The notes beneath the pieces are model-generated. The model worked only from the letters and a program-made list of their open reading frames with translations, did not search any database and had not been told where the DNA came from. From assembly GCA_047517345.1 (NCBI GenBank), contig JAKZTB010000106.1, forward strand, positions 14,473 through 78,472: a DNA stretch of 64,000 bases, read 5' to 3'. This DNA comes from Alphaproteobacteria bacterium. GTDB taxonomy: Bacteria; Pseudomonadota; Alphaproteobacteria; UBA8366; GCA-2717185. Made by a program: the position numbers and the translations under genes. Position 1 is the stretch's first letter, and the number at the start of each line of letters is the position of its first letter. This document shows, piece by piece, positions 1,918 through 38,235 of this stretch.

Positions 1918-2520
1918 TTGGAATTCGACAATACCTTTGACGTGCCGCTGCCGCCGGGCGAGACCTGGGCGCTGCTGCGCGATATCGAGCGGATCGCACC
2001 CTGCATGCCGGGGGCGAAACTGACCGAGCTGGTCGATTCCGATACCTTCAAGGGCGAAGTCTCGGTCCGGCTCGGCCCGGTTTCATTGACCTTCAAGGGA
2101 CAGGCGCGGTTCGAAGACGTCGACGATGCGGCGCGCAAGGCGCGGGTCAAGGCGGACGGCAAGGACGCCAAAGGGCGCGGTGGCGCGAACGCGATCGTCG
2201 ACTTCCGGGTCGAGCCGGGAGAGGGCGGCTCAACCGTCCTGATCCACACCAACTTGATGTTGTCGGGCTCGGTCGCGCAGTACGGCCGCGGCGTCGGCAT
2301 GGTGCAGGATCTGGCGGCGCAGCTCATCGGTCAGTTCGCGGAAAACCTCAAATCCGAACTCGCGAAAACCCCGGCCACTACAGACGCAGACCCCGCGGTA
2401 GAGGCCGCGCCGGCCGCTCCGGTGGCGGCGAAGCCGGTTTCCGGCCTGTCGCTGATACTCAGGGTTATATGGAACGCGTTTGTGAAGGTGGTTTGGAAAA
2501 GCGCGGCAAAAGGTTCCTAA
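1918..2520 (+). CDS. CoxG-like SRPBCC family protein
   Basis: TTG start preceded by GGGAGGGA. The N-terminus FDVPLPPGETWALLRDIERIAPCMPGAKL and the VSLTFKG / GRGGANA pattern match CoxG (CO dehydrogenase subunit G family). Ala/Pro-rich C-terminal tail. Confidence 0.8.
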   Translation: MEFDNTFDVPLPPGETWALLRDIERIAPCMPGAKLTELVDSDTFKGEVSVRLGPVSLTFKGQARFEDVDDAARKARVKADGKDAKGRGGANAIVDFRVEPGEGGSTVLIHTNLMLSGSVAQYGRGVGMVQDLAAQLIGQFAENLKSELAKTPATTDADPAVEAAPAAPVAAKPVSGLSLILRVIWNAFVKVVWKSAAKGS

Positions 2521-2554: not shown

Positions 2555-4900
2555 TCACCGTGTGTCCTTGTTCTGATAGCGGGTTGCCCGTGCGTCCCGG
2601 ATTGCGCGGTAGACGGTCTCAGGCGTCGCCGGCATCTTGATGTCCGTCACGCCCAGGGGCGCCAAGGCATCCACGATGGCGTTGATCACCGCGGCGGGTG
2701 CGGCGGTCGGGCCCGCTTCGCCGACGGACTTCACGCCAGTTGGATTGTGGGTGCAGGGGACTTCGAGAATTTTCGTTTCGAAGAAGGGTAGGTCGTGCGC
2801 GCGGGGCAGGGCGCAATCCATGAAGGAGCCGGTCAGCAGCTGACCCGACTCCGGATCGTGATGGTTCCGCTCCAGCAGCGCCTGGCCGATCCCTTGCGCC
2901 ACGCCGCCGGCGAGCTGGCCTTCGACGACCATCGGGTTGAGGGCGCGGCCGACATCCTGCGCCATGCTGTAGCGGAACAGGGTTGCTGCGCCGGTTTCCG
3001 GATCTACTTCGACCTCGGCGATATGGCAGCCGTTCGGGAAGGTGCTGTTTTTCGGTTCGTAGCGATGCGAGGCTTCCAGCGGCCGGTCGCGCGCGATTTC
3101 CGCCAGGGTCAGGATCCGGTCGGTGCCGCGGATGCGGTACGCTCCATCTTCGTATTCGATGTCCTGCGGCGCGGCTTCGAGTATTTCCGCTGCCGCGTCG
3201 AGCCCCGCCTCGATCAATTCGCCGCCGGCGATCACCAGCGCGCTGCCGCCGATCGTCATGGAGCGGCACGCGCCAGTCCCCATGCCCCAGGGCGTTTCGT
3301 TCGTGTCGCCCTGGACGATGCGGATGCGGTCCATCTCGATGCCCAGCCGTTCGGCCAGCATCTGGGCGTAGACCGTTTCGTGCGACTGGCCGTTCGACAT
3401 GGTGCCGATCAGCACGACGATCTGTCCGTCCGCCGTGCATTCGATGTCGGCCCGGTCGGCGATTCCCGCACCGCAAGCTTCCAGAAGATTGCCGTAGCCC
3501 AGCCCGCGATAGAGGCCGCGCGACTCGCTGTCGGCGCGGCGCGTGGAAAATCCGGCGACGTCCGCGAGGCGTTCCGCCTCCGCCATCGCGGCGGCGAAAT
3601 CGCCGCTGTCGTAGGTGGACAAGGCGGGCGTGCGGTAGGGCATCGCTTCGGCCGGCACTAGGTTTCGGTAACGGATTTCCGCGGGCGTCAGCCCCATCTC
3701 GCGCGCGGCGGTGTCGAGCAGCCGCTCGATCACGAACACCGCTTCCGGCGCCCCGGCGCCGCGGTAGGGGCAGGTCGGCATGCGGTTGGTGTGGACGCCG
3801 TGGATATCGAAGTCAATTGCGGGAATGACGTAGACGCTGGTGCCCATGATCCGCCACATGTTGCCGGCGGTCGATCCGCGCGGCCCGAGATAGCCGCCCA
3901 GATCGGCCAACGCACGGACCCTGAGCGCGAGGAATTTTCCGTCCGCATCGAAGGCGGCATCCGCGTCGGCCGCCTGGCCGCGGCCCTGATAATCGCTCAG
4001 GAAGCTTTCGCCGCGGTCGGCCAGCCAGCGCACCCGCCGGCCCAGTTTGCGCGCTGTCCACAATACCAACGCCTGCTCCGGGTAGAGCGGGTTCTTGGCG
4101 CCGAAACCGCCGCCGACGTCCTTGGCGACGACGCGGACCCGGTCTTCGGGTAAGTGGAAGATGTCCCGGGCCAGGTGGCGCCCCACAGTCTGCGGCTTCC
4201 CCGCGGCGGCATGCATCGTGTAGCGGTCGTCGACCGGATCGTAGTGGCCGACATAGCCGCGTGTCTCCAGCGGGTTCTGGACGACGCGCTCGTTCGCAAT
4301 GGAAACCGTCGTGATGTGCGCCGCCCGTGCGAAGGCTTCTTCGACCGCATGTCTGTCGCCTATGTCGGTGCGGAAATTGACATTGCCCGGCGACTGATCC
4401 CAAAGCGGGTCAGCGGCAAGCGCGCGGCGCACGTCGATCAGCGGCGGCCGTTCGGCATAGTCGACGAATATCGCTTCCGCGGCATCCTTCGCCTGCGCCA
4501 CGCTTTCGGCAACCACGACGGCGACAGGTTGGCCCAAATAGAGCACCCGGTCGTCGGCCAAAATCGGCTGCGGCTGCCCGATGGCCGGATCGCCCTGCAC
4601 CGGCGGCGATTGAGGAGGGGCGTTGTGCGGGGTCGGTGGCTGGCGCTCCCAGGGAATGCCGCCCAGCCCGTCCGCCTTGACGTCCTGCCCCGTCCAAATC
4701 CCCAGCACGCCGGGCATCGCGCGGGCGCTGTCCACATCGATGGACAGGATTGCGGCATGCGGGTATTCCGCACGCAGGACGACCATATGTGCGACGCCGT
4801 CGAAGGGCAGATCGGCGATATAACGGCCCTGTCCGGTCAGAAACCGATGGTCCTCGACCCGCTGGACCGACCGACCGACATAATAGCGATCCGTGTCCAT
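2555..4900 (-). CDS. Xanthine dehydrogenase/aldehyde oxidase family molybdopterin-binding large subunit (CoxL-like, not form-I CODH)
   Basis: 781 aa. Motifs: VGRSVQRVEDHRFLTGQGRYIADL (a/b-hammerhead N-terminus), PYRGAGAPEAVFVIERLLD, GVKSVGEAGPTAAPAAVINAIVDAL. The form-I CODH loop VAYRCSFR is absent. Confidence 0.9.
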   Translation of the reverse strand: MDTDRYYVGRSVQRVEDHRFLTGQGRYIADLPFDGVAHMVVLRAEYPHAAILSIDVDSARAMPGVLGIWTGQDVKADGLGGIPWERQPPTPHNAPPQSPPVQGDPAIGQPQPILADDRVLYLGQPVAVVVAESVAQAKDAAEAIFVDYAERPPLIDVRRALAADPLWDQSPGNVNFRTDIGDRHAVEEAFARAAHITTVSIANERVVQNPLETRGYVGHYDPVDDRYTMHAAAGKPQTVGRHLARDIFHLPEDRVRVVAKDVGGGFGAKNPLYPEQALVLWTARKLGRRVRWLADRGESFLSDYQGRGQAADADAAFDADGKFLALRVRALADLGGYLGPRGSTAGNMWRIMGTSVYVIPAIDFDIHGVHTNRMPTCPYRGAGAPEAVFVIERLLDTAAREMGLTPAEIRYRNLVPAEAMPYRTPALSTYDSGDFAAAMAEAERLADVAGFSTRRADSESRGLYRGLGYGNLLEACGAGIADRADIECTADGQIVVLIGTMSNGQSHETVYAQMLAERLGIEMDRIRIVQGDTNETPWGMGTGACRSMTIGGSALVIAGGELIEAGLDAAAEILEAAPQDIEYEDGAYRIRGTDRILTLAEIARDRPLEASHRYEPKNSTFPNGCHIAEVEVDPETGAATLFRYSMAQDVGRALNPMVVEGQLAGGVAQGIGQALLERNHHDPESGQLLTGSFMDCALPRAHDLPFFETKILEVPCTHNPTGVKSVGEAGPTAAPAAVINAIVDALAPLGVTDIKMPATPETVYRAIRDARATRYQNKDTR

Positions 4901-4924
4901 GGCCGCCGTCCGGATGTTAGACTC

Positions 4925-5869
4925 TTAGATCCCGGCCGCCGCCGCGATATAGGTGTCGGTCTCCAGATCGTCTTCGACCGCGCCGGTCAGGTCAGCGATG
5001 CGGGCGATGCCGCGGCGGTCGCACCAATCCTCCAGATCCTCGATGATCGACGTCATCGCGGTCGGGTTGCGGAACGAGGCGTATCCGACCTGCACGGCGC
5101 TGGCGCCGGCCAGCATGTACTCGACGACGTCTTCCGCCTTGACGATACCGCCGCAGCCGATGATCGGAATAGAGACCGCCTTGGCGATCTGATAGACCAT
5201 GCGCAAGATGATCGGCTTGACGGCGGGGCCCGACATACCGCCGGTCTTGAAGCCGAGCGCCGGCCGGAAGCTGTGCGTGTCGATGCGCATCGACAGGATG
5301 GTGTTGGCGACGGTCAGCGCGTCGGCGCCGGCCTCCTCCGCCGCCCGGGCGATGGCGACGATATCGCCGGCATTGGGCGACAGCTTGACGAAGATAGGCA
5401 AGTCCGTCGCCGCACGGATGCCGCGCACCGTCTCTGCAGTGTGTTCCGCGTGCAGGGCGAAGTTGCCGCCGTTCGGGTCGCGGGTCGGGCAGGAGATATT
5501 GATCTCGAGCGCCTGCACCCCCGGCACGGTGACGTCGTGCGCCATCGCCGCGAAATCTTCCTCCGTCGTCGAGGTGATGCTGACGATCGTCGGCGGGCTG
5601 TACTGCGTGTATTGCGGCAGCAGTTCGGTCAGGAAGTAGTCGAGCCCCTTGCCCGGCAATCCGATGCAATTGATCATGCCGCATTCGACCTCGGCGACGC
5701 GCGGCGGCGGATTGCCGTCGCGCAGCTCACGGCTGACCGTCTTGGTCAGGGTCGCGCCCAATTTGTTGATGTCGATGACCTGCGCCATTTCCGGGGAAAA
5801 AGTGCCGGAAGCCGGCATGACCGGGTTGGGCATCTCGAAATCGCCGAGCTTTACCGAAAGATCTACCAT
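4925..5869 (-). CDS. Class-1 dihydroorotate dehydrogenase / dihydropyrimidine dehydrogenase (PreA)-like catalytic subunit
   Basis: 314 aa from the ATG at 5869. Motifs: PVMPASGTF, EINISCPT (catalytic Cys loop), GGMSGPAVKPI, IIGCGGI. The Arg-rich upstream part of the 470-aa track ORF overlaps the next gene and is rejected. Confidence 0.85.
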   Translation of the reverse strand: MVDLSVKLGDFEMPNPVMPASGTFSPEMAQVIDINKLGATLTKTVSRELRDGNPPPRVAEVECGMINCIGLPGKGLDYFLTELLPQYTQYSPPTIVSITSTTEEDFAAMAHDVTVPGVQALEINISCPTRDPNGGNFALHAEHTAETVRGIRAATDLPIFVKLSPNAGDIVAIARAAEEAGADALTVANTILSMRIDTHSFRPALGFKTGGMSGPAVKPIILRMVYQIAKAVSIPIIGCGGIVKAEDVVEYMLAGASAVQVGYASFRNPTAMTSIIEDLEDWCDRRGIARIADLTGAVEDDLETDTYIAAAAGI

Positions 5870-6777
5870 CCCATCGCCTCCTGCATGTCGAAGACGGGTC
5901 CGTCGATGCAGACCCGCTTGAGTGTTTTGACGCCGTCGATCTCGAAGGTCCGGACGCAGACGTAACAGGGCCCGAGACCGCAGGCCATGATCTGCTCCAT
6001 GGCGACCTGCCCCGGAATGCCGTGCTTTTCGCCGAGCCGCTTCATCAGCATGAACAGCCGGTTCGAGCCGCAGGTGTAGAACGCGTCTGCACGGCCCCGC
6101 GCGACCCGGTCCTCGATGATCGCTTCGACGTTGCCGAGATCGCTGCTGCCGTCGGTATCGGTGACGGTGACGATCTCCGCGCCGGCTTTCTCGAACAGGC
6201 CGCCGGACATCGTCAGGTCCGGGCTGCGCGCGCTCAGGATGACCGTCGCGTTGACGCCGTTCTCCGCGATCAACTGCGAGATCGGCGCCAGGGTCGCGAG
6301 ACCGACGCCGCGGCCCAGAACCACGACGTTCTGCCATTCGGGTGCGATCGAAAATCCGACGCCGAGCGGGCCGACGATGTTGAACTGGTCGCCGGGCTCC
6401 AGCATCGCCGTACCCTTCGTGCCGCGGCCGACCGTTTTATAGAGGAATTCGAGCCGCTGGCGGGCCCTGTCGACGACGTAGATGCTTTGCGGCCGGCGCA
6501 GCCAGAGATCGCCCTCGTCGGGCGATGGGCAGAGCCAGTGGAAGAACTGGCCGGGCCTGGCGGTCAGCGCCTTGGGCGAGGCGGTGATGACGAGATGCTT
6601 GTACTCGTCGTTGATCCAGTCGTTCGACAGGACGGTCGTCAGGGTTTCCTCGGCCGGTGCGGCGGGCGCCCGGTCGACGAAAGTGTCATCCCCAACCACG
6701 CGGGGTTTGGTGGAGAAGACGGTGGTCTCCGTTTGGGTCATTCGGGATCCACGAATTTCAGTTTGTTCAAAAATCAT
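5863..6777 (-). CDS. PyrK-like electron-transfer subunit (FAD/NAD(P)-binding plus 2Fe-2S)
   Basis: 304 aa with a ferredoxin-reductase-type fold (RRPQSIY, VVVLGRGVGLATL). The C-terminal MACGLGPCYVCV...RVCIDGPVF has the same Cys pattern as PyrK. 7-nt overlap with the DHOD-like gene. The start could be 6777 or 6741. Confidence 0.8.
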   Translation of the reverse strand: MIFEQTEIRGSRMTQTETTVFSTKPRVVGDDTFVDRAPAAPAEETLTTVLSNDWINDEYKHLVITASPKALTARPGQFFHWLCPSPDEGDLWLRRPQSIYVVDRARQRLEFLYKTVGRGTKGTAMLEPGDQFNIVGPLGVGFSIAPEWQNVVVLGRGVGLATLAPISQLIAENGVNATVILSARSPDLTMSGGLFEKAGAEIVTVTDTDGSSDLGNVEAIIEDRVARGRADAFYTCGSNRLFMLMKRLGEKHGIPGQVAMEQIMACGLGPCYVCVRTFEIDGVKTLKRVCIDGPVFDMQEAMGW

Positions 6778-6807
6778 TAATAGTCCTAAAAATATTACAA
6801 ATCCAGT

Positions 6808-7692
6808 TCAATCGATATGTTTTGCGATCAAATTGCGCATGAATTCGCCCGCGGCGACGCCCTTCAGGGCGCGGCGCCACATGTCTTCGACGGTTTTCTC
6901 GTGCAGGCTCAACGCTTCCGGCGCCGAGGTAATCATGGCGACGCCAACCCGTACGTTGGGCTGCGCGCCGAGCCGGAAGGGGCTGACGGTCAGCACCTTG
7001 CGATCCGACTGGCGGAAGATCTGGAAGCCTGTATGGGGCAAGGTGTCCGGCACGATTCCGATCTGCACGCTGATCGGCTCGTCTTCCATCATGGCGGCGA
7101 GATGGCTCGCTTCGGCCACTGCGAGGCTTCGACGCTTTTCTCTCTCGGTTTCGCTGAGATCGATCCGACCGACCAACCCGTTGCGCAGGAACCCGTCCAT
7201 CTCCATCGCCGACAGCAGATTGACCACACCCGGCTGGCGCCTGCAAAAAGTCGCCTTGCGGGCGTTCAACACCGCCATGATGTCTCCCGCTTGTTCCAGC
7301 GCCGCATCGCGGTCCGGCAGGTCGTTCGGAATATTCTCGCGCAGGATTTTCGCGAGGGTCTCGTCGAAGGCGTCGGAAGCCAGCAGGTAGGAGATCGGGC
7401 CCGCCAGCACGACGATATGTTCCGACGTTTCCTCGATCTGGCGGATGCGCTCGAAATAGCTGACCGCCGAAGCGACATACTCGACACCGACGCCGAGCAG
7501 AGTCGGGATCGACACTTCCAGCAGGTCGGCGAGCTTTTCCAATGTGTCGATCTTGGCAAGTTCGCCTTTCTCGAACCGGTAGAGGGCCGTCCGCGAGATG
7601 CCGATTCGTTTGGCGACATCGTCGGCGCTCAAGCCCGAGCCGAGCCGGAAGGCGCGCAGCCGATTGCCAATATCGTCGAAGCGGATCGCCAT
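6808..7692 (-). CDS. XRE-family HTH transcriptional regulator with unassigned ~220-aa C-terminal domain
   Basis: 294 aa from the ATG at 7692. LRAFRLGSGLSADDVAKRIGISRTALYRFEKGE is a Cro/C1-type HTH. The ATG overlaps the TGA of the upstream Mo-hydroxylase gene (TGATG). Confidence 0.8.
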   Translation of the reverse strand: MAIRFDDIGNRLRAFRLGSGLSADDVAKRIGISRTALYRFEKGELAKIDTLEKLADLLEVSIPTLLGVGVEYVASAVSYFERIRQIEETSEHIVVLAGPISYLLASDAFDETLAKILRENIPNDLPDRDAALEQAGDIMAVLNARKATFCRRQPGVVNLLSAMEMDGFLRNGLVGRIDLSETEREKRRSLAVAEASHLAAMMEDEPISVQIGIVPDTLPHTGFQIFRQSDRKVLTVSPFRLGAQPNVRVGVAMITSAPEALSLHEKTVEDMWRRALKGVAAGEFMRNLIAKHID

Positions 7693-10016
7693 CAGCCGGA
7701 TTCGATTGCCGCGAGGATGTCGGGCGGGCTCAGCGGCGCCTTGGTAAGGCGGACACCGAAGGATGATAGGGCATCCTCGATCGCCGAGACGATCGCCGCG
7801 GGAACGGGAAACACACCGCATTCGCCGACCCCCTTGACGCCCAGCGGATTCAAGTCTGTCGGAGATTCATGATGGACGATGTCGATGCGCGGCACTTCCG
7901 GCGCGGTGATCAGCAGGTAATCCGCAAGATTGGTGGTCTGGGGCTGGCCGTAGTCGTCGAAGCCAATCCGCTCGTACAGCGCGTTGCCGATGCCGTGCGC
8001 CGCCGCGCCGACAATCTGCCCGTCGACGACCGCCGGATGGATCACGGCGCCGCAATCGTGCGCGAAAACGAAATTAACGATCGCGACATGGCCGGTCTCG
8101 GGGTCGACGTCGACCTCGACGACGGCCGATCCGTTGGCGTAGGTCAAATCGTCGACCACCACATGCTCCGTCGCTTCCAGGCCTGGCTCGACCCCGCCGG
8201 GCAGATTGTAACCGGGAACGCCGGCGACGGACCGGGCGACCTCGCCGAGGCTCACCTTCATGTCGGAGACGCCTGCAACGCGCACATCGCGGCCGACGAT
8301 TTCCAGATCGGCCTCCGAGGCTTCCAGAATATGCGCCGCGATACGCAACGCCTTCTCCCGCACCTTGACCGCCGCGACATGCGCGGAGGAACCCGCGGTA
8401 ACCGCCTGGCGGCTGTTGAACCCTCCGATCCCAAGCGTCGTCGCGGCGCTGTCGCCCGCGGTGACCTTGACGTTCGCCATATCTCCGCCGAGTTGTGCGG
8501 CGACGATCTGCGCCATCATCGTTTCGGTGCTTTGGCCCATCGCGGTGGCGCCTGTCGCGACCTCAACGGTTCCGGACGGCGCGATCCGCACGGTGGCGGA
8601 CTCGAAGGGTCCGCGCCCGGTGCCCTTGACGAAATTCGCCAGGCCGATGCCGAGATAGCGGCCGTCCGCGCGGGCGGCTTTCTGGCGGGCGGCGAAGCTG
8701 TCCCAACCGGCGCGTTTCAGCGCATCCGCCTGGCATTTCGGGTAGTCGCCGCTGTCCAGAACGACCGGCCCGCCGCCGCGGTTCCGCAGCGGCTTGGTCT
8801 TCGGCATGTCTTCGCCGGCAACCAAGTTGCGCCGACGGATCTCGGCCCTGTCGAGGCCGAGTGCCTCGGCTGCCCGGTCGAGCAGCCGCTCCATGACGAA
8901 GACGCCCTGCGGCTGCCCCGCGCCGCGCACGGGCGTCACGGGCACCTTGTTGGTCAGGGCCAGTTTCACGTTCATCGCGTAGGCTGGGATTTCGTAGGGC
9001 AGGGTGACGGTGATCGCGGACTCGTAGGGCAGGTTGACGCCGCGCGCGGTGAAGGCGCCGTGGTCGTGGATCAGGGAACCCCGCAGGCCCAGAATCTTGC
9101 CGCTGTCGTCGACCGCGATTTCCGCATCCCAGTATTGGTCGCGCTCCTGGGTGGTACCGATGAAATGTTCCCGCCGGTCTTCGATCCACTTGACCGGCCG
9201 GCGCAGGATCAAGACGGCCGCGGCGACGACGATGTCCTCGGGGTAGAAGATCAGCTTGGGTCCGAACCCACCGCCGAGGTCGGGCGCCACGACCCGGACG
9301 CTCCGCTCGTCCCGGCCCAGCATGTCGCACAGCAGTTGCCGCGCCGTATGCGGCGTCTGGGTCGAGCTCCATAAGGTCAACCGGTCGTCGAGCAGATCGT
9401 ACGCGGCGACGTTGCCGCGGCACTCGATGGAGTGCCCCCCGCCGCGATGCTGATGGAACGATTCGCGGAAGATGTGGGGTGCGGCGGCGAACGCCATATC
9501 GCAGTCGCCGAACGCCATGTCGAACTCGGCAAGCAGATTGTGGTCGGCGCCGTCATGCACCGGCGCGGCATCTTCGGCCAGCGAGTCGCGGGCGTCGGCG
9601 ACCGCGGGCAGCGGGTCGTAGTCGACATCGACAAGCGCCGCCGCGTCCTCCGCGATGTAGCGGTCGTCCGCAACGACAAATGCGATCGGTTCGCCGACAT
9701 GGACAGTCTCGTCGTGGGCGAGTGCGATCCGGTTGCGGTCCTGTCTGTAGCTCGGGCTCGGCAGGCCGACGACCAATCGGTCGGTGCGCAGATGGGGCTG
9801 CAAATCGTCGAGGGTCAGGACGGCATGGACGCCGGGAACAGCCAGCGCGGCCGCCTTATCGATCCGTTTGATTTTGGCGTGGCCATAGGCGCTGCGGACG
9901 AAGGCACCCTCCAGCATTCCCGGCAGCGCGATATCGTCGACGAAGCGCCCTTCGCCGCGCAGGAGCTTGCCGTCTTCGAGTCTCGGAACGCTGACCCCGA
10001 CTACCGCGTCGACCAC
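7692..10016 (-). CDS. Xanthine dehydrogenase family molybdopterin-binding large subunit (CoxL-like paralog 2)
   Basis: 774 aa with a GTG start after GAGAGG. Motifs: VGVSVPRLEDGKLLRGEGRFVDDI, PVRGAGQPQGVFVMERLLD, GVKGVGECGVFPVPAAIVSAIEDAL. No VAYRCSFR loop. Confidence 0.9.
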   Translation of the reverse strand: MVDAVVGVSVPRLEDGKLLRGEGRFVDDIALPGMLEGAFVRSAYGHAKIKRIDKAAALAVPGVHAVLTLDDLQPHLRTDRLVVGLPSPSYRQDRNRIALAHDETVHVGEPIAFVVADDRYIAEDAAALVDVDYDPLPAVADARDSLAEDAAPVHDGADHNLLAEFDMAFGDCDMAFAAAPHIFRESFHQHRGGGHSIECRGNVAAYDLLDDRLTLWSSTQTPHTARQLLCDMLGRDERSVRVVAPDLGGGFGPKLIFYPEDIVVAAAVLILRRPVKWIEDRREHFIGTTQERDQYWDAEIAVDDSGKILGLRGSLIHDHGAFTARGVNLPYESAITVTLPYEIPAYAMNVKLALTNKVPVTPVRGAGQPQGVFVMERLLDRAAEALGLDRAEIRRRNLVAGEDMPKTKPLRNRGGGPVVLDSGDYPKCQADALKRAGWDSFAARQKAARADGRYLGIGLANFVKGTGRGPFESATVRIAPSGTVEVATGATAMGQSTETMMAQIVAAQLGGDMANVKVTAGDSAATTLGIGGFNSRQAVTAGSSAHVAAVKVREKALRIAAHILEASEADLEIVGRDVRVAGVSDMKVSLGEVARSVAGVPGYNLPGGVEPGLEATEHVVVDDLTYANGSAVVEVDVDPETGHVAIVNFVFAHDCGAVIHPAVVDGQIVGAAAHGIGNALYERIGFDDYGQPQTTNLADYLLITAPEVPRIDIVHHESPTDLNPLGVKGVGECGVFPVPAAIVSAIEDALSSFGVRLTKAPLSPPDILAAIESG

Positions 10017-10099
10017 CGATTGTGCCTCTCAACTGCCTCGCGAGGGCATTAGAAGCGGCCACTGTCAATTAATCAATAATAATTCCAAAAATGGTACGG

Positions 10100-11089
10100 T
10101 CAGAGTTTCGGTAAATCCAGTGTCGACGGCGCGAACAGCTCTTCCGCTACCAGTTTTCGCTCGGTCAGGCCCTGCTCGACGGAGTATCGGGTCATCGCTT
10201 CGATCTCATTGGCGTTTTCGGTCGCGCCGTAGGGCCAGAAATCTTCGCCCATCAACGCGCGCGCCTTTTCGAATTCGTCGACCGGCCAGGGCAGGGTCGT
10301 GTGCAAATGGCCGACTTCCGCCTGCCGGCGGTAACAGATCCGCTTCGCTTCGAGATAGCCGAGATAGACGTTGACCGGCAGCCAGGGATGCTGCTCGACG
10401 ATGCTGCGGCGGATCCCGACCAGATGCATGATCGGGAACATGCCGGTCTTGGCGTAATAGGCCTCTTCGTCCGTCCGGTAGTCGGGGAACAGTCTCGCAA
10501 CCTTGTCGTTTCTCTCCAGGCAGGACGGCGCCCGGGCGGCGATCAAGGCGTCCAGGTCGCCCCTGTCCAGCATCCCGTTCAACGTTTCGTCGGCCGGGAT
10601 CGGTTGCAATTCGACATCGTCTGGTAGCTGTACTTGCACCTTCTGGGTGCGGCCCGGCTCTTCCTGACCGCCGTTGCGCCAGCGGATATCGGCCGGCGCG
10701 ACGCCGTATTCGTCCTGCAGGATGCCGCGGACCCACATCGCCGCCGTCATCGGGTATTCCCGCACGCCGACGATCTTACCCTTCAGATCCTCGGGCGCAT
10801 CGATGCCCTTGTCGGTCCGGATATAGATTGAGGAATGCCGGAACATGCGCGACACGAAAGCGGGTATCGCGACATAGGGGCAGGCGTCGCGCGACAACTG
10901 GGTCATGTAGTTCGACATCGACAGCTCGGTGATGTCGAATTCCTGGAACTTGAAGGCGCGGTGGAAGGCCTCCTCCGGCGTCATCGGTGTCGCGACAATC
11001 TCGCACCCGTCGACCCGCACGCGGCCGTCGAAGAGCGACCGGGTGCGGTCGTAATCGACGCCCGCGAGGCTGAGGGTCAGTTTCGCCAT
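10100..11089 (-). CDS. 4,5-dihydroxyphthalate decarboxylase (PhtD)-like / NMT1-type periplasmic-binding-fold protein
   Basis: 329 aa from the ATG at 11089. MAKLTLSLAGVDYDRTRSLFDGRV...FDITELSMSNY...CPYVAIPAFVSRMFRHSSIYIRTD resembles PhtD as I recall it. The upstream part of the 524-aa track ORF is rejected. Confidence 0.75.
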   Translation of the reverse strand: MAKLTLSLAGVDYDRTRSLFDGRVRVDGCEIVATPMTPEEAFHRAFKFQEFDITELSMSNYMTQLSRDACPYVAIPAFVSRMFRHSSIYIRTDKGIDAPEDLKGKIVGVREYPMTAAMWVRGILQDEYGVAPADIRWRNGGQEEPGRTQKVQVQLPDDVELQPIPADETLNGMLDRGDLDALIAARAPSCLERNDKVARLFPDYRTDEEAYYAKTGMFPIMHLVGIRRSIVEQHPWLPVNVYLGYLEAKRICYRRQAEVGHLHTTLPWPVDEFEKARALMGEDFWPYGATENANEIEAMTRYSVEQGLTERKLVAEELFAPSTLDLPKL

Positions 11090-11100
11090 TTCCGGGCCGG

Positions 11101-11712
11101 TCAGGCCGCTTTGCCGCGATCGACTGCCGCCTGCATCAGTTCCAGCCGGTCGTTGCCGAAATACATGTCGATCTTGTCGAGGAAGAAGGTCGGTGAGCCG
11201 AAGCCGCCACGCGCGATGATCTCGTCGGTCGTTTCGAACAGCTTTCGCTTGATCCGGTCGTCGCCGATCTGCGCGAAGAAATTGTCCGCGTCCATGCCCA
11301 CAGCGCCGACGATATCGCGCAGCACGTCTTCCTGCGAGATGTCCTTGTCGTCGCACCAATAGGCCTCGAAACAGGCGCGCGAATAGGCGGAAATCGTGCC
11401 TTCCTCGATGGCGACGAAAGCGCCGCGGAGCGCCTTGACGCTGTTTACCGGAAAGACGCTCGGTTTGATCATCTCGATCCCCTGGAAGCGGCCCCAATCC
11501 GCCATGTCCTTTTGATAGTATGCGTCCTTTGGCGGGACGGGATTCTCGCGGCGCAGATAGACGCTCGGATTGACCTTGTTGAAGACGCCGCCGACAAGGA
11601 ACGGTTTCCAGACCAAGTCGGCGTTGTTCTTGGCGCAGAAATCCTCGATCCGGTCGAAGGCGTAGAAGGTCCAAGGGCTGGAATAGTCGAAGTAGAATTC
11701 AATGGTGGTCAT
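11101..11712 (-). CDS. 2-hydroxychromene-2-carboxylate isomerase family (DsbA-like thioredoxin fold)
   Basis: 203 aa from the ATG at 11712. IEFYFDYSSPWTFYAF, KPFLVGGVF and GGFGSPTFF are typical of the HCCA isomerase/DsbA-like family. Confidence 0.8.
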   Translation of the reverse strand: MTTIEFYFDYSSPWTFYAFDRIEDFCAKNNADLVWKPFLVGGVFNKVNPSVYLRRENPVPPKDAYYQKDMADWGRFQGIEMIKPSVFPVNSVKALRGAFVAIEEGTISAYSRACFEAYWCDDKDISQEDVLRDIVGAVGMDADNFFAQIGDDRIKRKLFETTDEIIARGGFGSPTFFLDKIDMYFGNDRLELMQAAVDRGKAA

Positions 11713-11744: not shown

Positions 11745-12572
11745 TTATAGCCGCTTTGCCCACGCGTCCAACTGGGGCAGCACCGCGTCGGCCTGTTCGG
11801 ATTCCATGCTGAGGACGATTCGTTCAATTCCGGCATTCTCGTAAGCCGGCCATTCGTCGGGATCGTGTTCCACCCCGAAGACCGAAATCGGGACGGACCG
11901 TCCCGCCGCTTTCTCCATCTCGCGGAACTCCGGCAGCCGGTCGAGCAACCTGTAGGTTGGACGGCGCGCGTGCGGCAGCCAACCGTCGCCATAGTCGAGC
12001 GCGCGCCGCGCCGCCCAAGGGATGCCGCCGCCGACGATGACCGGCGGATGCGGCTCTTGCACCGGCTTGGGCCAGGTCATCATCGGGTCGAAATCGACGA
12101 AGTCGCCGTGATATTCCGGCTTGGTTTCGGTCCAGATGGAACGCATTGCCTCGATCTGTTCGCGCATCTTGGCGTTGCGCGTCTTGAAGACGGTGCCGTG
12201 GTTCGCCATCTCGTCCGCGTTCCAGCCCGACCCGATGCCGAACAGGAAACGGCCGTTCGAGACTTGGTCGATCGAGGCGACGGATTTCGCGGTCTGGATC
12301 GTGTCGCGCTGCGGAACGAGGCAGATGCCGGTCGCGACCTTCAGCGTGGAGGTGACCGCCGCGGCGGCGCCCATGACGACGAACGGATCCATCAGGTCGT
12401 AATACTTCTTCGGCAGTTCGCCGCCGGACGGGAAAGCGGAGGCGCGCGAGAGCGGGATGTGGCTGTGTTCCGGGAACCAATAGGAATCGAATCCGCGTTC
12501 TTCCAGTGCTACCGCCAGCTCCGCCGGGGGCATGGAATAATCGGTGGCGAACATCGCAACGCCGACATGCAT
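11745..12572 (-). CDS. Luciferase-like (LLM class) flavin/F420-dependent oxidoreductase
   Basis: 275 aa from the ATG at 12572. Motifs: FDSYWFPEHSHIP, GICLVPQRDTIQTAK, SNGRFLFGIGSGW. The 732-aa track ORF is mostly an artefactual N-terminal extension antisense to 12708-13712. Confidence 0.8.
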   Translation of the reverse strand: MHVGVAMFATDYSMPPAELAVALEERGFDSYWFPEHSHIPLSRASAFPSGGELPKKYYDLMDPFVVMGAAAAVTSTLKVATGICLVPQRDTIQTAKSVASIDQVSNGRFLFGIGSGWNADEMANHGTVFKTRNAKMREQIEAMRSIWTETKPEYHGDFVDFDPMMTWPKPVQEPHPPVIVGGGIPWAARRALDYGDGWLPHARRPTYRLLDRLPEFREMEKAAGRSVPISVFGVEHDPDEWPAYENAGIERIVLSMESEQADAVLPQLDAWAKRL

Positions 12573-12707: not shown

Positions 12708-13712
12708 GTGATCGTCGATGTCCACGCGCACTTCGTCCCGCAGAAAATGCTCGACGCCTTGGCCAGCGGCCGTGCGTCTTTCCCGAATGTTGAGCTGCTG
12801 CATGAGGGCGATACTTTCAAGCTTGGCTTCGCCGGCGGCCCCTTGACGCGCCCGGTCATCCCGAAGTTGCGCGAGGCCGAGGGGCGGCACGCCTGGATGA
12901 CCGAGAACAAGATCGACAGGCAGGTGATCGGCGGCTGGCTCGACGCGTTCGGCTACGAGTTGCCGCCGGAAGAGGGTGCGGCGTGGAGCCGGTTTCTGAA
13001 CGAGCATCTCAAGGAAGCGACGGAGGCCAACCCGTTCCTGGCCCCGCTCGGCAGCGTACCGCTGCAAGATGGGAAGCTGGCCGCTGAAGCGCTGCGCGAG
13101 CTGATCGAGGCCGGGCATAAGGGCGCGATGATCGGTACGCAGCCGCACGGCAGTTCCGGGAATTTGGACGATCCACTGCTCGATCCGTTCTGGGAGGCGG
13201 CGTCGGAACTGGAAGCCGTCCTCTACATCCACCCGATGTTCGGCTGCGGCGACCCGCGGCTGGCCGATTTCGCAATGATCAACGCGGTCGGGCGCGGGCT
13301 CGATACGACGACGGCAGTGGCGCGGCTGCTGTTCTCCGGCCACTTCCTGAAATATCCGGGGATGAAGGTCGTGCTGTCCCACGGCGGCGGCGCGTTGCCC
13401 TTCATGTTGGGGCGGTTGCGGCACAACGCCGATATTCATACGGGCCAGTTCGCCGACCCCGTCGAGGGGTTCAAGCGGCTGTATCACGACACGGTGCTGC
13501 TCGACCCGGACGCTTTGAAATTCGTCTGCGGCAAGACCGGCGCGGGCCAACTGATGATGGGATCCGACTATCCGTTCCCGATCGGCGACATGGCGCCCTG
13601 CGACATCGTGCACAAGGCGGCCTTCAGTGAATTCGACACCAGTGCTATCCTCGGTGGGACGGCGGCGAAGCTGTTTCAGTTGGACGATGGATGCGATGGC
13701 CAGCACGGATGA
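12708..13712 (+). CDS. Amidohydrolase-2 family protein (ACMSD-type decarboxylase/hydratase superfamily)
   Basis: GTG start after GAGGAG. Motifs: MIVDVHAHFVP (HxH metal site), VLYIHP, VLSHGGGALPF, MGSDYPFP. Confidence 0.85.
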   Translation: MIVDVHAHFVPQKMLDALASGRASFPNVELLHEGDTFKLGFAGGPLTRPVIPKLREAEGRHAWMTENKIDRQVIGGWLDAFGYELPPEEGAAWSRFLNEHLKEATEANPFLAPLGSVPLQDGKLAAEALRELIEAGHKGAMIGTQPHGSSGNLDDPLLDPFWEAASELEAVLYIHPMFGCGDPRLADFAMINAVGRGLDTTTAVARLLFSGHFLKYPGMKVVLSHGGGALPFMLGRLRHNADIHTGQFADPVEGFKRLYHDTVLLDPDALKFVCGKTGAGQLMMGSDYPFPIGDMAPCDIVHKAAFSEFDTSAILGGTAAKLFQLDDGCDGQHG

Positions 13713-14796
13713 ACAAGGTGTAGATCCCTTTCGCGATACGCGCGGTACACGGGTTCCGTTCGAACTGGTGATTGATCCGGCCGGCTGGACGACCGAGGAG
13801 ATGGCCGCTAGCGAGGTTTGGCTGTACCGGTTCGACACGCGCGAGATCGCCGAGATTCGGGACGCCATCGCGCCGTTCGACCGTGACGATGTCGACCTGA
13901 TGTCGGTCGAAGCGGAGCATTTCAACCTGCCCCGTCTTGGCAAGGTACTGGGCGATGTGCGGCAGGAACTCCTTTACGGTCGGGGTTTCGCGCTGTTCCG
14001 TGGCCTGCCCGTTGAGGAGATGGGCAAACGCGGCACGGCGGTGGCCTTCTGGGCCGTCAGCCGCTATTTGAGCGACGGCGTCTGTTCGCAGAACAAGCGT
14101 GGGCATGTCCTGGGGCATGTCACGGATTTAGGCGAAAGCCGATCGAATCCCAGCCAGCGCGGGCCCTATTCGCGGGAGGAAATACCGTTTCATGTCGATT
14201 GCTGCGACATCGTCGGCCTGCTGTGCCTGGAGACGCCGGTCTCCGGCGGCGAAAGCAGCGTCGTCAGTTCGGTTGCCTTGCACAACGAGATGCTGAAACG
14301 CAGGCCCGACCTGGTTGCGATCATAGCCGAACCCTATTTCCGCGACCGCCGGGACGAAGTGCCGCCGGGCATGAAACCGTATTACAAACTTCCGATCTTC
14401 AACTATCACCAGGGCTATTTCAGCGCGTCGATCGAGCCGACCTATATCGGTTCGGCCCACCGCTTCGAAGCGTGCGGTGAGATGACCGAAGTGCAGAAGG
14501 AGGCGCTGGCGTTTTCGCAGGCGCTGGCTGACGAAATGCGCTTCGACCAGGGTTTCAGCCGGGGTGACATGCAGTTCGTCAATAACCATGTGATATTTCA
14601 TACGCGGCGCGGCTACCAGGATCATGCTGACCCGGATCGAAAGCGCCATCTGCTGCGCGTCTGGCTGAAGGCCTTCGACGGCCGGCCCCTACCCGACGGC
14701 TTCTACGAGCGTCACGGGACCCGCGAAACGGTCGACCGGCCGGGCGGTATCGTCGGGACCGATACGGTCCTGAACGCGCCGATCTATCGCGAATAG
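13687..14796 (+). CDS. TauD/TfdA-family Fe(II)/2-oxoglutarate dioxygenase (long form)
   Basis: IPFHVDCCD (HxD facial triad), VNNHVIFHTRRGY and RHLLRVWL. Start uncertain (13687, 13696 or the GTG at 13627). It overlaps the end of the preceding gene. Confidence 0.75.
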   Translation: MDAMASTDEQGVDPFRDTRGTRVPFELVIDPAGWTTEEMAASEVWLYRFDTREIAEIRDAIAPFDRDDVDLMSVEAEHFNLPRLGKVLGDVRQELLYGRGFALFRGLPVEEMGKRGTAVAFWAVSRYLSDGVCSQNKRGHVLGHVTDLGESRSNPSQRGPYSREEIPFHVDCCDIVGLLCLETPVSGGESSVVSSVALHNEMLKRRPDLVAIIAEPYFRDRRDEVPPGMKPYYKLPIFNYHQGYFSASIEPTYIGSAHRFEACGEMTEVQKEALAFSQALADEMRFDQGFSRGDMQFVNNHVIFHTRRGYQDHADPDRKRHLLRVWLKAFDGRPLPDGFYERHGTRETVDRPGGIVGTDTVLNAPIYRE

Positions 14797-14847: not shown

Positions 14848-14903
14848 ACCAATGCGGGCACCGAATTTTCGAATACTGGAATCCCAAAAAAAGAAGTAAC
14901 GCG

Positions 14904-15668
14904 TTGAAAAAATACCTTCTAGTCGGTCTGGCATCGGTCGCTGTATTCGCACTCGTCTTTGCGACGCTTTCATACGTAGCGTTGCCGTTCCTCCAGTCCG
15001 AGCTTCGCGTCGATATGTCTCTGTCCGACCCCGGTGGGTCGTTCGAAGTGTATGCGAACAAAGACTACGGTAATCCGCACCGCATCGCGGTGACTCAGGC
15101 TGGACGAAAGTCATACGTATTTTCAAGGCTTCCGATAGATCTATGGTCTGTCAGGTTAAATACAGCAGACAAAAGGGATATAGGAGTCACATATCATGCC
15201 GTTGAAATTTTTATCGATAACGAACGGATATTTAGTTTCCCTACCGATACTTTCGACACACACCTTGTCAAGAATTTATCGGGAGAAGGAGAGTATGTAT
15301 CGATAGGTAATGATCCGACTTTCATTACAGGATTGCCTTCCGACATCAAAGATAAATTAAATAAGATAAAACGTAATATGAAATTACAAATATCATTATT
15401 CGCGTCTTTAATCGTCATTGCACTTTCTATCGTGTATTTATACGGCACCAAATTTTTGCGTTTGCAGAGGGAGGGGAGGAATTACGGGTTCGAAAGAAAA
15501 TATCAGATAACAGGAAGTTTTTCTGTAAAGTATTTCGAATATATTTTGCCATTCGTTCATAGGTTAAGGTTTGTTTTTTTTCCTTGTATTCGGCATTCTT
15601 CTCTGTTCTTCCTCAATTCTATTGATAAATGCCTACCGCGCCTCTTTAGCGTATGTTCCGTCATATGA
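14904..15668 (+). CDS. Orphan membrane-anchored protein (signal-anchor, ~150-aa soluble module, second TM)
   Basis: TTG start in an AT-rich context. Hydrophobic segments are LLVGLASVAVFALVFATL and LQISLFASLIVIALSIVYLYG. No family recognised. The 3' end overlaps the next ORF by 98 nt in another frame. Confidence 0.5.
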   Translation: MKKYLLVGLASVAVFALVFATLSYVALPFLQSELRVDMSLSDPGGSFEVYANKDYGNPHRIAVTQAGRKSYVFSRLPIDLWSVRLNTADKRDIGVTYHAVEIFIDNERIFSFPTDTFDTHLVKNLSGEGEYVSIGNDPTFITGLPSDIKDKLNKIKRNMKLQISLFASLIVIALSIVYLYGTKFLRLQREGRNYGFERKYQITGSFSVKYFEYILPFVHRLRFVFFPCIRHSSLFFLNSIDKCLPRLFSVCSVI

Positions 15669-17745: not shown

Positions 17746-17821
17746 CCGGATAAAGCTGTGGAAGGCTTAAAAACGGCCTGATTGGCGGCGGCGGCGCCTG
17801 CCGTATTGCGAGGAGAGCAAG

Positions 17822-35886: not shown

Positions 35887-38235
35887 ATGACCTTCCAGGC
35901 GCCCATCGGGTCTCCGTTGCCGCGCGACCGCGCCAAGCGTTTGCTGGCCGGCCGGGGGCAATATGTCGACGACATCGAGCTGCCGCGCCTATTGCATCTG
36001 GCTTTCGTCCGGTCGCCCTATCCGCATGCGCGGGTCTTGGCGATAGATTCCGTCGAGGCCTCAGCCATGCCGGGCGTGACTCGTGTCGTGATCGCAAAAG
36101 ATTTGGCACATGTCGTGTCATCCTGGCGCGGAATCCACAATCTGTTTCCGGACATGAAGGCACCGGAACAGCATGTCCTTGCCGCCGATATCGCGCGCTG
36201 GCAGGGCGAGGCGGTCGCCGCGGTCGTCGCGCGCAGCCGCGCAGAGGCGGAAGATGCGGCGGAGCAGGTTGTTGTGGACTGGCAGGAACTGCCGGCCGTC
36301 AGCGATGCAGAATCGGCATTGAGCTCGGCGGCGCCGATCCACGAAACCTTGGGCGACAATCTCGCCTTTGCGACGGAGGTATCCCAAGGGGATACAGAGG
36401 CCGCGTTCGAGGCCGCGCGTCTTGTCGTCGAGCGCCAATTCCGTTTCAACCGGCACACCGGCGTCAGTCTGGAACCGCGCGGTGTGATCGCCGACTACGA
36501 TCCCGCATCGGACCGGCTGACCGTTCACCAATCGCATCAGACACCGCATCAGCAGCAGGACCTCTACGCCCACCTGCTCGATATCCCGGAGCAAAATGTG
36601 CGGGTGATCTGTCCCGATGTCGGCGGCGCGTTCGGGCTCAAGCATCATCTCTACCCGGACGAGCTGGCCGCCTGTGCGGTGTCGAAGCTGCTTGGCCGCC
36701 CGGTCAAATTCATCGCCGACCGGCTCGAATCCTTCCTGTCCGACATCCATTGCCGCGATCATTCGGTCGCCGCGCGTATGGCGTTCAGCGAGCAAGGCGA
36801 CATCGTCGGCCTGGACGTCGACGACCTGTTCCATGCCGGCGCGTATTCGCAATACCCGCGGTCCAGCATTGCCGAGGGCAACCAGATCATCCGGCTTTGT
36901 GGCGTCCCCTACCGGCACGGCCATTACCGCGCCGCGGTGCGCATGGCCTATCTCAACAAGTCGCTGCTGGGCCATATCCGCTCGGTCGGGCACCCCATCG
37001 CCTGCGCGGTGACCGAGCAGCTTATCGAGCTGGGTGCGAAACGGCTCGGTCTCGACGCGATCGCGCTGCGGCCGCGCGCCTATCTGCGCGACGAGGATTT
37101 CCCGATCACGTCGCCGGGCGGCATCGCGCTGGAGCGGTTGTCGTTCCACGGTTGTCTCGACCGCGCGCTGGAGCGCGTGGATGTGGACGCGTTCCGCACG
37201 GAACAGGCGCAGCTTCGCGAAGATGGCGTTTATCGCGGGATCGGCTTCGCGACCTTCGTCGACCTGACGGCTATAGGCCCCGAATATTACGGCGAAGGCG
37301 GGCAGCATATCAGCGCGCAGGAGACCTGCATCCTGCGCCTCGAAGCGTCCGGCGGCATCCGTTGCTATACCGGCGCGACCGATCAGGGGCAGGGCATCGA
37401 CAGCGGCATCCAGCAGGTCGTGGCGGGGATCGTCGGCGTGTCCGTGGATGACGTCAAGGTGAACAGCGGCGACAGCGAAATGTGTCCGGTCGGCGGCGGA
37501 TCGTGGGGCTCGCGCGGCGCGGCGCTCGCCGGCGAGGCGGCATTGCGGGCGGGCCGTGAACTGCGGCAGAACATCCTCAATATTGCCGGTGTCCTGCTGC
37601 AGAAATCCGCGGAATCGCTGGATATTCGCGAAGGCGCGGTGGTCGATGCGCAAAGCGGCGCGGCGCATATGACGCTCGACGAGGTCGCCTCGGTCGGCCA
37701 TTTCAAGCCCTAAATAGTTCCCGACGGCGTGTCGGCCGACCTGACCGTCACGGGCCGGTATGCGAGCCGAGACAGGATGTTCCTGCCGGCGAACGGACTG
37801 CATGTCGCGATCGTCGAGGTCGATACGGATACCGGGCTGGTGGCCTTCCGGCGCTATCTCGTTGTGCACGATTGCGGGCGGCTGCTCAATCCCCTGCTGG
37901 TCGAGGAGCAGATCCGCGGCGGCGTGGTGCAGGGGATCGGCGGCGCGCTGTACGAGGAATTCCTCTACGATGGCGCCGGGTATCTGCGCAACGGGACGCT
38001 GGCGGACTATCTGGTGCCGATGGCGGCGGAAATGCCGGATATCGAGGTCGAGCATCTCGAAACGCCGACCGCAACCTCGGAGCTGGGTGCGAAGGGCGCG
38101 GGCGAGGCCGGCACGACCGGCGCCATGGGCGCGGTGCTGAACGCGGTCAACGATGCGCTTTCGCTCTTCGATGTTACGCTGAGCGAAGTGCCGCTAACGC
38201 CGCCACGGATATTGCATGCCCTCGGCAAGGTCTGA
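35887..38235 (+). pseudogene. Xanthine dehydrogenase family molybdopterin-binding large subunit (paralog 3) with one in-frame TAA
   Basis: Track ORFs 35887-37713 and 37729-38235 share a frame, and the only interruption is the TAA at 37711-37713. Read-through gives ...DEVASVGHFKP*IVPDGVSADLTVTGRY... The C-terminal part carries NPLLVEEQIRGGVVQGIGGALYEE and GAKGAGEAGTTGAMGAVLNAVNDAL. Confidence 0.8.

Follow-up and report, generated by a model that had tools for sequence, protein, structure and literature searches.

Class 1B dihydroorotate dehydrogenases (DHODs), exemplified by PyrDB/PyrK of Lactococcus lactis and Bacillus (PDB 1ep1-1ep3, 5ue9), are encoded by two overlapping genes, one for an FMN-containing TIM barrel with a catalytic Cys and the other for an FNR-like FAD subunit with a C-terminal four-Cys [2Fe-2S] site. 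The same architecture is seen on both sides when these enzymes are compared with a gene pair in a 64-kb stretch of an alphaproteobacterial contig (JAKZTB010000106.1; the whole stretch is referred to as the window), where the pair lies with the gene of an XRE-family regulator between the genes of two molybdenum (Mo) hydroxylase large subunits, MoL1 and MoL2. These genes probably form the core of a regulon for the catabolism of an N-heteroaromatic carboxylate: Mo hydroxylases of the conventional kind, their small (S) and medium (M) subunits supplied in trans, would act on the ring, and the DHOD-like/PyrK pair would then reduce it. All parts are members of known families, and the arrangement belongs to a widespread, uncharacterized and co-regulated gene set.

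Several described systems resemble portions of this locus. The Mo hydroxylases composed of large (L), medium and small subunits (quinoline 2-oxidoreductase, 1t3q; 6-hydroxypseudooxynicotine dehydrogenase, 7dqx; the nicotine and nicotinate dehydrogenases) are similar to the window proteins in domains, length, catalytic Glu and a YRGAG-type loop, and a CoxG-like partner gene is present; the window L subunits differ in being paralogs (two in the cluster, four in the 64 kb) without cognate S and M genes, interleaved with pyrK and DHOD genes. In PreT/PreA and dihydropyrimidine dehydrogenase, which function in uracil and thymine catabolism, a DHOD-family TIM barrel also reduces a heterocycle C=C bond; however, the window pair lacks both the 4Fe-4S ferredoxin domain and the GltD-like partner, and its sequence is clearly of the 1B clade. 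A DHOD-B acting as a catabolic ring reductase has counterparts in the orotate fermentation of Clostridium oroticum and in the plasmid operons of loci L094 and L095, described below. For the isonicotinate pathway of Mycobacterium sp. INA1, PMC4548258, citing Kretzer et al. 1993, gives two successive Mo-dependent hydroxylations, by two distinct Mo hydroxylases, from isonicotinate to a 2,6-dihydroxy product, which is the likeness to the present clusters. Unlike that pathway, the cluster has no conserved gene for a CoA ligase, the DHOD-B paralog would reduce the free acid, and the hosts are Proteobacteria; the link between these clusters and the INA1 pathway is one that we infer. The enzymes of the INA1 pathway (Kretzer, Frunzke and Andreesen 1993) are known; its genes are not known to have been described.

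The core of the locus comprises seven features:
2555 to 4900, minus strand: MoL1, Mo-hydroxylase large subunit of 781 aa, the last gene of the pyrK-DHOD-MoL1 unit
4925 to 5869, minus strand: DHOD-like flavin TIM-barrel protein of class 1B type, 314 aa (Pfam DHO_dh, 1e-66)
5863 to 6741, minus strand: PyrK-like FAD/NAD(H) and [2Fe-2S] electron-transfer subunit, 292 aa (Pfam DHODB_Fe-S_bind), start revised from 6777
6763 to 6800, minus strand: operator-like AT-rich inverted repeat, TTGTAATATTTTTAGGACTATTAATGATTTTTGAACAA, 22 nt upstream of the PyrK start
6808 to 7692, minus strand: XRE-family regulator of 294 aa (Pfam HTH_31/HTH_3; HTH E 1e-11)
7692 to 10016, minus strand: MoL2, Mo-hydroxylase large subunit of 774 aa with three Pfam domains, ortholog of the L subunit encoded after coxM-coxS
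10062 to 10099, minus strand: second operator-like site, CCGTACCATTTTTGGAATTATTATTGATTAATTGACAG, 46 nt upstream of the MoL2 start

The original prediction of five tightly packed minus-strand genes agrees with the coordinates and with the domains, each gene being backed by Pfam/NCBIfam; the sole change is the start of PyrK, which is most likely 6741 rather than 6777, as the homologs are 288–292 aa long and the operator-like site extends over 6763–6800. The two predicted overlaps can be read directly in the sequence: the MoL2 stop and the XRE start have one base in common (TGATG), and the PyrK-like and DHOD-like genes overlap by 7 nt, with a further gap of 24 nt between the DHOD-like gene and MoL1.

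By family scores, the DHOD-like protein is above the NCBIfam cutoffs for DHOD (PRK07259, 345.5 against 269; TIGR01037, 305.7 against 270); its best PDB matches are the DHODB PyrD chains of 5ue9 and 1ep1 (E 1e-72), and PreA is a weaker NCBIfam match at 148 bits versus a cutoff of 335. The catalytic Cys is kept, with NISCPT of the window aligning with NISCPN of 5ue9, and so are the equivalents of Lys43, Asn127 and Asn193. The orotate-binding residues of class-1 DHODs are Lys43, Asn67, Asn127, Asn132 and Asn193/194 in class 1A numbering, and Asn67 and Asn132 hydrogen-bond orotate (PMC12060061). This set is incomplete in the window protein, which has Thr at the Asn132 position (NISCPTR). Further differences from the class 1B enzymes are seen in the Arg/Lys that follows this Thr, in GLPGKG where the GLQNPG motif is expected, and in a different active-site loop. 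The PyrK-like protein carries PF10418 (DHODB_Fe-S_bind, E 8e-12), and four Cys (C-x4-C-x2-C-x15-C), RRPxS and GRGVGLAT are invariant in 17 homologs; unlike the known PyrK proteins, it falls below every NCBIfam PyrK cutoff (best NF000799, 127 bits against 314) and has an N-terminal extension of ~35 aa. The 'X1/X2' DHOD-like families (PMC4016543) were considered as relatives and set aside, as they form a different clade on the dihydropyrimidine dehydrogenase side.

The PyrK-like family has thousands of metagenomic homologs, and 80 genome loci were fetched by family alignment and annotated against a reference set. Comparison of the DHOD motifs across the 80 resolved three groups: one with NISCPN, holding canonical DHOD-B and the loci here called N-type; a T-type group with NISCPT(R/K), to which the window belongs; and a second T-type group in which Asn67 is additionally replaced by Gln (21/44 T-type). 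Thr in place of Asn132 (SCPN to SCPT) is found in all 44 DHODs of the Mo-associated groups, while the canonical and N-type proteins keep Asn. When gene content was compared between the 44 T-type and 17 N-type loci, a Mo large subunit was nearby in 27/44 versus 3/17, a TcuA-like gene in 21/44 versus 0/17, an amidase in 19/44 versus 0/17 and CoxG in 22/44 versus 0/17. T-type clusters carry a primary-amide amidase and a TcuA-like gene in place of the ureide-specific carbamoylase; they also encode Mo hydroxylases (one or two), a UbiD- or PhtD-like decarboxylase and a transporter for tricarboxylates.

N-type loci, found in Pseudolabrys, Stappia, Nitratireductor and Pigmentiphaga and on plasmids of P. 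putida, Agrobacterium, Neorhizobium and Variovorax, have a carbamoylase (TIGR01879, 269 against 204) directly after the DHOD, along with a dihydroorotase and/or PyrE and a transporter, and are often plasmid-borne. To judge by its genes, this set looks like a reductive orotate-catabolism operon leading from orotate through dihydroorotate and carbamoyl-aspartate to aspartate. Two examples are L094 (Nitratireductor sp. OM-1 plasmid pOM-1, 4828–12804), with XRE, transporter, PyrK, PyrD (SCPN), a carbamoylase-family hydrolase and PyrE, and L095 (P. putida plasmid p716811-VIM, 5328–13323), where a dihydroorotase takes the last position after the same first five genes; both look like operons for aerobic, NADH-dependent reductive orotate catabolism, and no description of such catabolism in Proteobacteria was found in the literature searched. 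Their PyrK/PyrD belong to the same clade as the window pair (50–58% identity) and their XRE proteins to the same family (39–51%), but they differ in keeping SCPN, in having the carbamoylase and in being without Mo hydroxylase, CoxG, TcuA-like and amidase genes. As these relatives read as orotate-catabolism operons, the ancestral role of this PyrK/PyrD clade appears to be catabolic, and the presence of related clusters on plasmids points to genes that are accessory and catabolic; the entire clade would then be of this kind and not housekeeping.

These comparisons bear on the possibility that the window pair serves genuine orotate metabolism, either as a catabolic orotate reductase or as an alternative NAD-linked biosynthetic DHOD, with the Mo enzymes making orotate (for example, by hydroxylating pyrimidine-4-carboxylate twice) or being mere neighbors. 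This is considered unlikely, although it accommodates the DHOD cutoff scores, the retained catalytic Cys and Lys43, Asn127 and Asn193 equivalents, the proteins of canonical clusters that exceed the PyrC and PyrE equivalog cutoffs, and the apparent orotate-catabolism operons among the N-type relatives. It does not accommodate the invariant change of Asn132 to Thr in the Mo-associated groups, with Asn67 to Gln in one subgroup, or the exchange of the carbamoylase that would act on N-carbamoyl-aspartate for a primary-amide amidase and a TcuA-like protein in exactly these groups; the Mo genes are moreover linked to pyrK by a common operator, and hence are not mere neighbors. Nor is a natural source of pyrimidine-4-carboxylate known.

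Two side observations concern the DHOD loci. A second, distant DHO_dh gene, whose product shares 29% identity with the DHOD of the cluster and has the loop SSPN without the catalytic Cys, is located at L011 17170–18099 and L016 7679–8608 (betaproteobacterial/Micropepsaceae loci), directly before a cluster-type ubiD and coxM-coxS. In the Gln67/Thr132 subgroup, a TPR protein is encoded immediately upstream of the operator and pyrK (L045 8464–9876; L021, L028–L046, L067, L068), and its C-terminus resembles 2OG-Fe(II)_Oxy_5 and ends in ...ENHRINxTLLFG.

The regulator consists of an N-terminal HTH and a C-terminal domain of ~200 aa without a known family, a PDB search matching the HTH part only. 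Its orthologs (39–87% identity) are found with pyrK-DHOD in each of the three DHOD groups, plasmid clusters included. A 38-nt inverted repeat, rich in AT and with the consensus TTGTACAAAAATTGGAAAAAATATTGATTTTGGTACAA, is located upstream of pyrK in ~35 loci; the operator sequence form of the regulon motif is TTGTAnnAnnnnTnGnAnnnnTnnTnATTnnTnnAnnA. The window was scanned with a position weight matrix (PWM) built solely from pyrK-upstream sites of other clades, the clade-W sites being left out, and 20 block-shuffled windows served as the null, with a best score of 9.3 bits. At a threshold of at least 12 bits, exactly two sites are found over the two strands of the 64 kb together, one before pyrK (6763–6800, 31.7 bits) and one before MoL2 (10062–10099, 25.7 bits, or 36.4 bits with the full PWM). 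Sites equivalent to the latter lie upstream of MoL2 in L001, L090, L045 and L021, and elsewhere, in further genomes, copies of the motif are placed ahead of coxM, a pyrC-pyrE-tcuA-amidase-coxG operon and the tct transporter operon. As the motif precedes both sets of genes, the Mo-hydroxylase and pyrK-DHOD genes are taken to be co-regulated; the XRE protein presumably acts at the predicted sites, and as a repressor it would control the regulon through the 38-nt operator before MoL2-XRE and before pyrK-DHOD-MoL1. A strong copy of the operator (54–55 bits) is also present at L007 20564–20601 and L004 19864–19901, with the tct transporter genes on one side and, on the other, a divergently oriented gene for a glutamine-synthetase-like protein (Gln-synt_C, ~500 aa), which may be a further member of the regulon.

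The regulatory link also bears on the view that this is a housekeeping class 1B pyrD/pyrK which by chance lies between two unrelated Mo-enzyme genes. Scores above the NCBIfam DHOD cutoffs are what this view would predict, yet the pair has a dedicated XRE regulator and an operator in common with the MoL2 operon, its substrate-binding Asn is altered, its PyrK is below all PyrK equivalog cutoffs, its link to catabolic genes is conserved across orders, and related pairs lie on plasmids of bacteria from groups normally using a class-2 DHOD; the view is therefore hardly credible. Co-occurrence, operator, Asn substitution and plasmid-borne relatives also support two proposals of the original prediction, namely that the pair is unlikely to be housekeeping pyrD/pyrK and that Mo-dependent hydroxylation of an N-heterocycle is followed by a redox step of the DHOD-like protein on its ring, here taken to be a reduction.

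Beyond the core, six flanking genes complete the block that is compared between genomes:
1918 to 2520, plus strand: CoxG-like SRPBCC protein (Pfam COXG, E 7e-17), convergent with MoL1
10100 to 11089, minus strand: 4,5-dihydroxyphthalate decarboxylase homolog of 329 aa, cytoplasmic, with an NMT1-like fold (PDB 9jp7, E 1e-92)
11101 to 11712 or 11763 (alternative starts), minus strand: DSBA-like thioredoxin-fold protein (Pfam DSBA, 9e-37)
11745 to 12572, minus strand: luciferase-like oxidoreductase, LLM (Bac_luciferase; TIGR03619, 252 against 167)
12708 to 13712, plus strand: Amidohydro_2 gene (Pfam), divergent
13696 to 14796, plus strand: TauD-family dioxygenase (Pfam), divergent

The block is made up of TauD and Amidohydro_2 (divergent), then LLM, DSBA-like, the 329-aa protein, MoL2, XRE, PyrK, DHOD and MoL1, and finally the convergent CoxG. 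It recurs in three other lineages (L001/L009, L008 and L090) at a PyrK identity of 80–91%, and the order of LLM and DSBA-like as well as the pair of Amidohydro_2 and TauD are the same in L001 and L090. Between the window and L001, and between the window and L008, dS is >1 and dN/dS is 0.04–0.13 for all six core genes (MoL1 0.12–0.13, DHOD-like 0.04–0.08, MoL2 0.08–0.10). Such values indicate that both orphan large subunits are functional genes, and recurrence of the same block at dS>1 argues that the arrangement is not a chance juxtaposition. A survey of gene neighborhoods, named as a check in the original prediction, finds the arrangement conserved in four lineages and the co-occurrence spread over alpha- and betaproteobacterial lineages.

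Metagenome-assembled genomes of Xanthobacteraceae, Rhodospirillales, Micropepsaceae and Burkholderiales have a canonical cluster in the order coxG, coxM, coxS, L, XRE, pyrK, DHOD, pyrC-like, pyrE-like, tcuA-like, amidase, often with a divergent coxM-(ubiD)-coxS-L operon and a tctAB transporter. The window is 67% identical to it in MoL2, 72% in XRE, 69% in PyrK and 67% in DHOD, and 57% in CoxG (canonical cluster L006). The canonical proteins pass the PyrC and PyrE equivalog cutoffs, and the score of the TcuA-like protein exceeds the one that NCBIfam sets for TcuA, tricarballylate dehydrogenase (582 against 369). The 329-aa decarboxylase homolog, which in the window directly adjoins the MoL2 operator on its upstream side, also adjoins T-type clusters in L012, L014, L017 and L021 and the MoL1 ortholog in L092.

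In turning to the large subunits, MoL1 and MoL2 are paralogs of 36% identity, each carrying Ald_Xan_dh_C, MoCoBD_1 and MoCoBD_2, and the matches to the closest solved structures, which for MoL1 are 8uem CoxL and the 1t3q quinoline 2-oxidoreductase L subunit, have E-values of 1e-112 to 1e-143. GVGE of MoL2 aligns with the catalytic Glu region of quinoline 2-oxidoreductase (Qor), CoxL and 7dqx; MoL1 has GVKSVGEAG at the corresponding place, as read by eye. An identity as CO dehydrogenases (form I CoxL) was ruled out, since the active-site loops (PVRGAGQ in MoL2, PYRGAGA in MoL1) are not the AYxCSFR/VAYRCSFR loop with the Cu-binding Cys, and the NCBIfam CO_dehy_Mo_lg scores of 497 and 456 are below the cutoff of 991. 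The original prediction held that the cluster encodes no small or medium subunit, and this extends to the whole 64 kb: the CoxS Cys motif is absent from the window, and tblastn with four CoxS/CoxM queries (E<=10) returned noise only. This is despite the presence of four paralogous large subunits of 31–44% identity, the other two being MoL3 and MoL4.

An unconventional wiring had been offered as one explanation, in which the orphan L subunits dock on PyrK, and perhaps on DHOD, so that electrons pass by the [2Fe-2S] cluster and FAD to the DHOD FMN or to NAD+, and PyrK replaces S and M. Absence of coxS/coxM from 64 kb with four L genes is in keeping with such a scheme, as is the order MoL2-XRE-PyrK-DHOD-MoL1, kept in four lineages at dS>1 with no S/M near the cluster. 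An L gene occurs in 27 T-type loci, of which 11 are without S/M within 10 kb, PyrK being always present, and homolog loci of MoL4 and MoL1 are likewise without adjacent S/M. However, in the survey of ~60 family loci, the PyrK and DHOD genes are neighbors and translationally coupled, many of these loci being without any Mo gene and the pair unchanged, which makes PyrK the partner of DHOD. The window PyrK, with no added domain, shares 69% identity with its counterpart in clusters where coxMS is present. MoL2 is as long as the L006 large subunit, to which it is 67% identical (order coxG-coxM-coxS-L-XRE-pyrK-DHOD); its orthologs are encoded directly behind coxM-coxS in L006 and L017, so MoL2 is taken to be an ordinary L subunit. 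No member of the xanthine dehydrogenase family is known to work without a 2x[2Fe-2S] subunit or domain.

The distribution of subunit genes speaks against the scheme as well, as loci with surplus medium/small (MS) pairs show that subunits are simply encoded apart. Two MS pairs accompany one L gene in L007, L034, L044, L047 and L069, two L genes accompany one MS pair in L029, L033, L045 and L093, the MoL1 ortholog of L092 is an orphan (order PhtD-like-PyrE-like-MoL1, with CoxG), and the MoL1-type gene of L093 adjoins a complete coxM-coxS-L-coxG operon. Such surplus loci, together with the L genes lacking S/M nearby, indicate that L, S and M genes are routinely unlinked in this system. This uncoupled pattern fits supply in trans and sharing, not replacement by PyrK, and the S/M subunits of MoL1 and MoL2 most likely have their genes at another place in the genome and are probably common to many L paralogs. 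An electron path through PyrK is for these reasons very unlikely, and an equally faint prospect is that, with S/M dispensable here, hydroxylation and reduction of the same heterocycle are coupled in one partly redox-balanced complex.

The remaining two large subunits were noted apart from the cluster. MoL3 (35887–38235, plus strand) is interrupted by an in-frame TAA at 37711–37713, giving open reading frames (ORFs) of 608 and 168 aa; the stop may reflect an error of sequencing, decay to a pseudogene or a subunit that is truly split. 3' of MoL3 lie an NMT1-like protein (38260–39183), DUF2848, an HpaB-type hydroxylase (40851–42380) and a luciferase-like oxidoreductase, with no coxS/M. MoL4 (62933–64000, minus strand) is 44% identical to MoL1 and runs off the window end. 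Contigs with MoL4 homologs of 72–74% (L088 and L089, frameshifted long-read assemblies) have no adjacent coxS/M either, so orphan L genes seem typical of this bacterial group.

Under the favored reading of a catabolic regulon with conventional Mo hydroxylases, a route for the heteroaromatic carboxylate can be proposed. MoL1 and MoL2, as conventional L subunits of the xanthine dehydrogenase family, would hydroxylate ring carbons next to the nitrogen together with a [2Fe-2S] S subunit and an FAD M subunit, and the 4,5-dihydroxyphthalate-decarboxylase-like enzyme would strip an extra carboxyl group; through UbiD or PhtD-like decarboxylases, pyridine dicarboxylates would enter the route as well. 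Two Mo-dependent hydroxylations would convert isonicotinate to citrazinate (2,6-dihydroxypyridine-4-carboxylate), the product being an orotate-like 2,6-dioxo-4-carboxylate ring. Judged from the gene content, citrazinate, a deaza-orotate in which one ring N is replaced by C, is the best candidate, as the one substrate that would fit every component. DHOD-like/PyrK and NADH would then reduce the C=C bond, running the DHOD-B reaction backwards on this analog in what is probably the reductive direction, to give 2,6-dioxopiperidine-4-carboxylate, the cyclic imide of tricarballylate. In sister lineages, a PyrC-like (dihydroorotase-like) cyclic amidohydrolase would open the imide, an amidase would free NH3, and a TcuA-like dehydrogenase would turn tricarballylate into cis-aconitate. 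Sister clusters encode candidates for every step of the isonicotinate/citrazinate route; the window encodes only hydroxylase L subunits, the decarboxylase and the reductase. The tricarboxylate at which the INA1 pathway reportedly ends would match the amidase and TcuA-like genes of canonical clusters. Orotate-binding sites accept citrazinate, as it is a potent inhibitor of orotate phosphoribosyltransferase (PMC5472421), and one may speculate that this inhibition explains the extra PyrE copy.

A number of points weigh against this proposal. The substrate is suggested by the genes present and by substitutions at one or two active-site positions, and the DHOD-like, PyrC-like and PyrE-like proteins are still above the NCBIfam cutoffs for genuine pyrimidine enzymes; a PyrE-like gene has no evident place in a catabolic pathway. 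The co-occurrence counts are not phylogenetically independent. The clade of the window has no pyrC-like, amidase or tcuA-like gene within 64 kb, and since LLM, DSBA-like, Amidohydro_2 and TauD genes occur in their stead, this clade may use a lower pathway, and conceivably a substrate, other than those of the canonical cluster. Supply of S/M in trans is an assumption, as coxS/coxM of this genome were not found in the 64 kb searched, and 11/27 T-type loci with an L gene lack them nearby. Lastly, the INA1 route reportedly activates citrazinate as a CoA thioester ahead of ring reduction, with hydrolysis leading on to propane-1,2,3-tricarboxylate.

Three elements appear to be undescribed: the recruitment of DHOD-B/PyrK, its substrate pocket altered, into a Mo-hydroxylase regulon, the probable citrazinate-to-tricarballylate route, and the sister orotate-catabolism operons. 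No relevant paper on these findings was found in the searchable literature, where searches for citrazinate/isonicotinate genes, aerobic catabolism of orotate, an oxidative pyrimidine pathway and orphan CoxL gave nothing directly relevant. If the reading is correct, DHOD-B/PyrK was recruited twice for catabolism, for orotate in the plasmid operons and then, after the change of Asn to Thr, for a deaza-orotate-type Mo-hydroxylase product; it would also provide the first gene-level model for isonicotinate/pyridine-dicarboxylate breakdown via citrazinate to tricarballylate, a pathway which to our knowledge has been known solely biochemically since the early 1990s. Were PyrK instead to take the place of S and M, this would be a new subunit architecture for the xanthine oxidase family. 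For annotation, caution is advised: in hundreds of genomes of alpha- and betaproteobacteria from soil and the sea, automated pipelines name such proteins 'dihydroorotate dehydrogenase', 'dihydroorotase' or 'orotate phosphoribosyltransferase', although they are probably not biosynthetic. In these bacteria, moreover, Mo-hydroxylase L, S and M genes routinely lie apart and seem to be shared among paralogs.

As for the surroundings of the cluster, a scan for consensus sigma-70 promoters and terminators was at chance level, and megablast of the first 12 kb against plasmids gave a GST gene in Azospirillum as the sole match, which places the cluster on none of the known plasmids. A low-GC (0.52–0.56) insert of ~3 kb at 14900–17800 separates the TauD and MR_MLE genes, which are adjacent to each other in L001; its ORFs (14904–15668, and 15571–17745 of 724 aa) have no Pfam or PADLOC match. 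The window UbiD-family gene (48052–49635) was left uncounted as a member of the system, with 27% identity to cluster-type UbiD. It belongs to a separate catabolic-looking cluster at 48052–58348, which comprises this decarboxylase, an acyl-CoA dehydrogenase, two TauD dioxygenases, a CoA-transferase, a polysaccharide-deacetylase-like protein and a 2OG-Fe(II) oxygenase.

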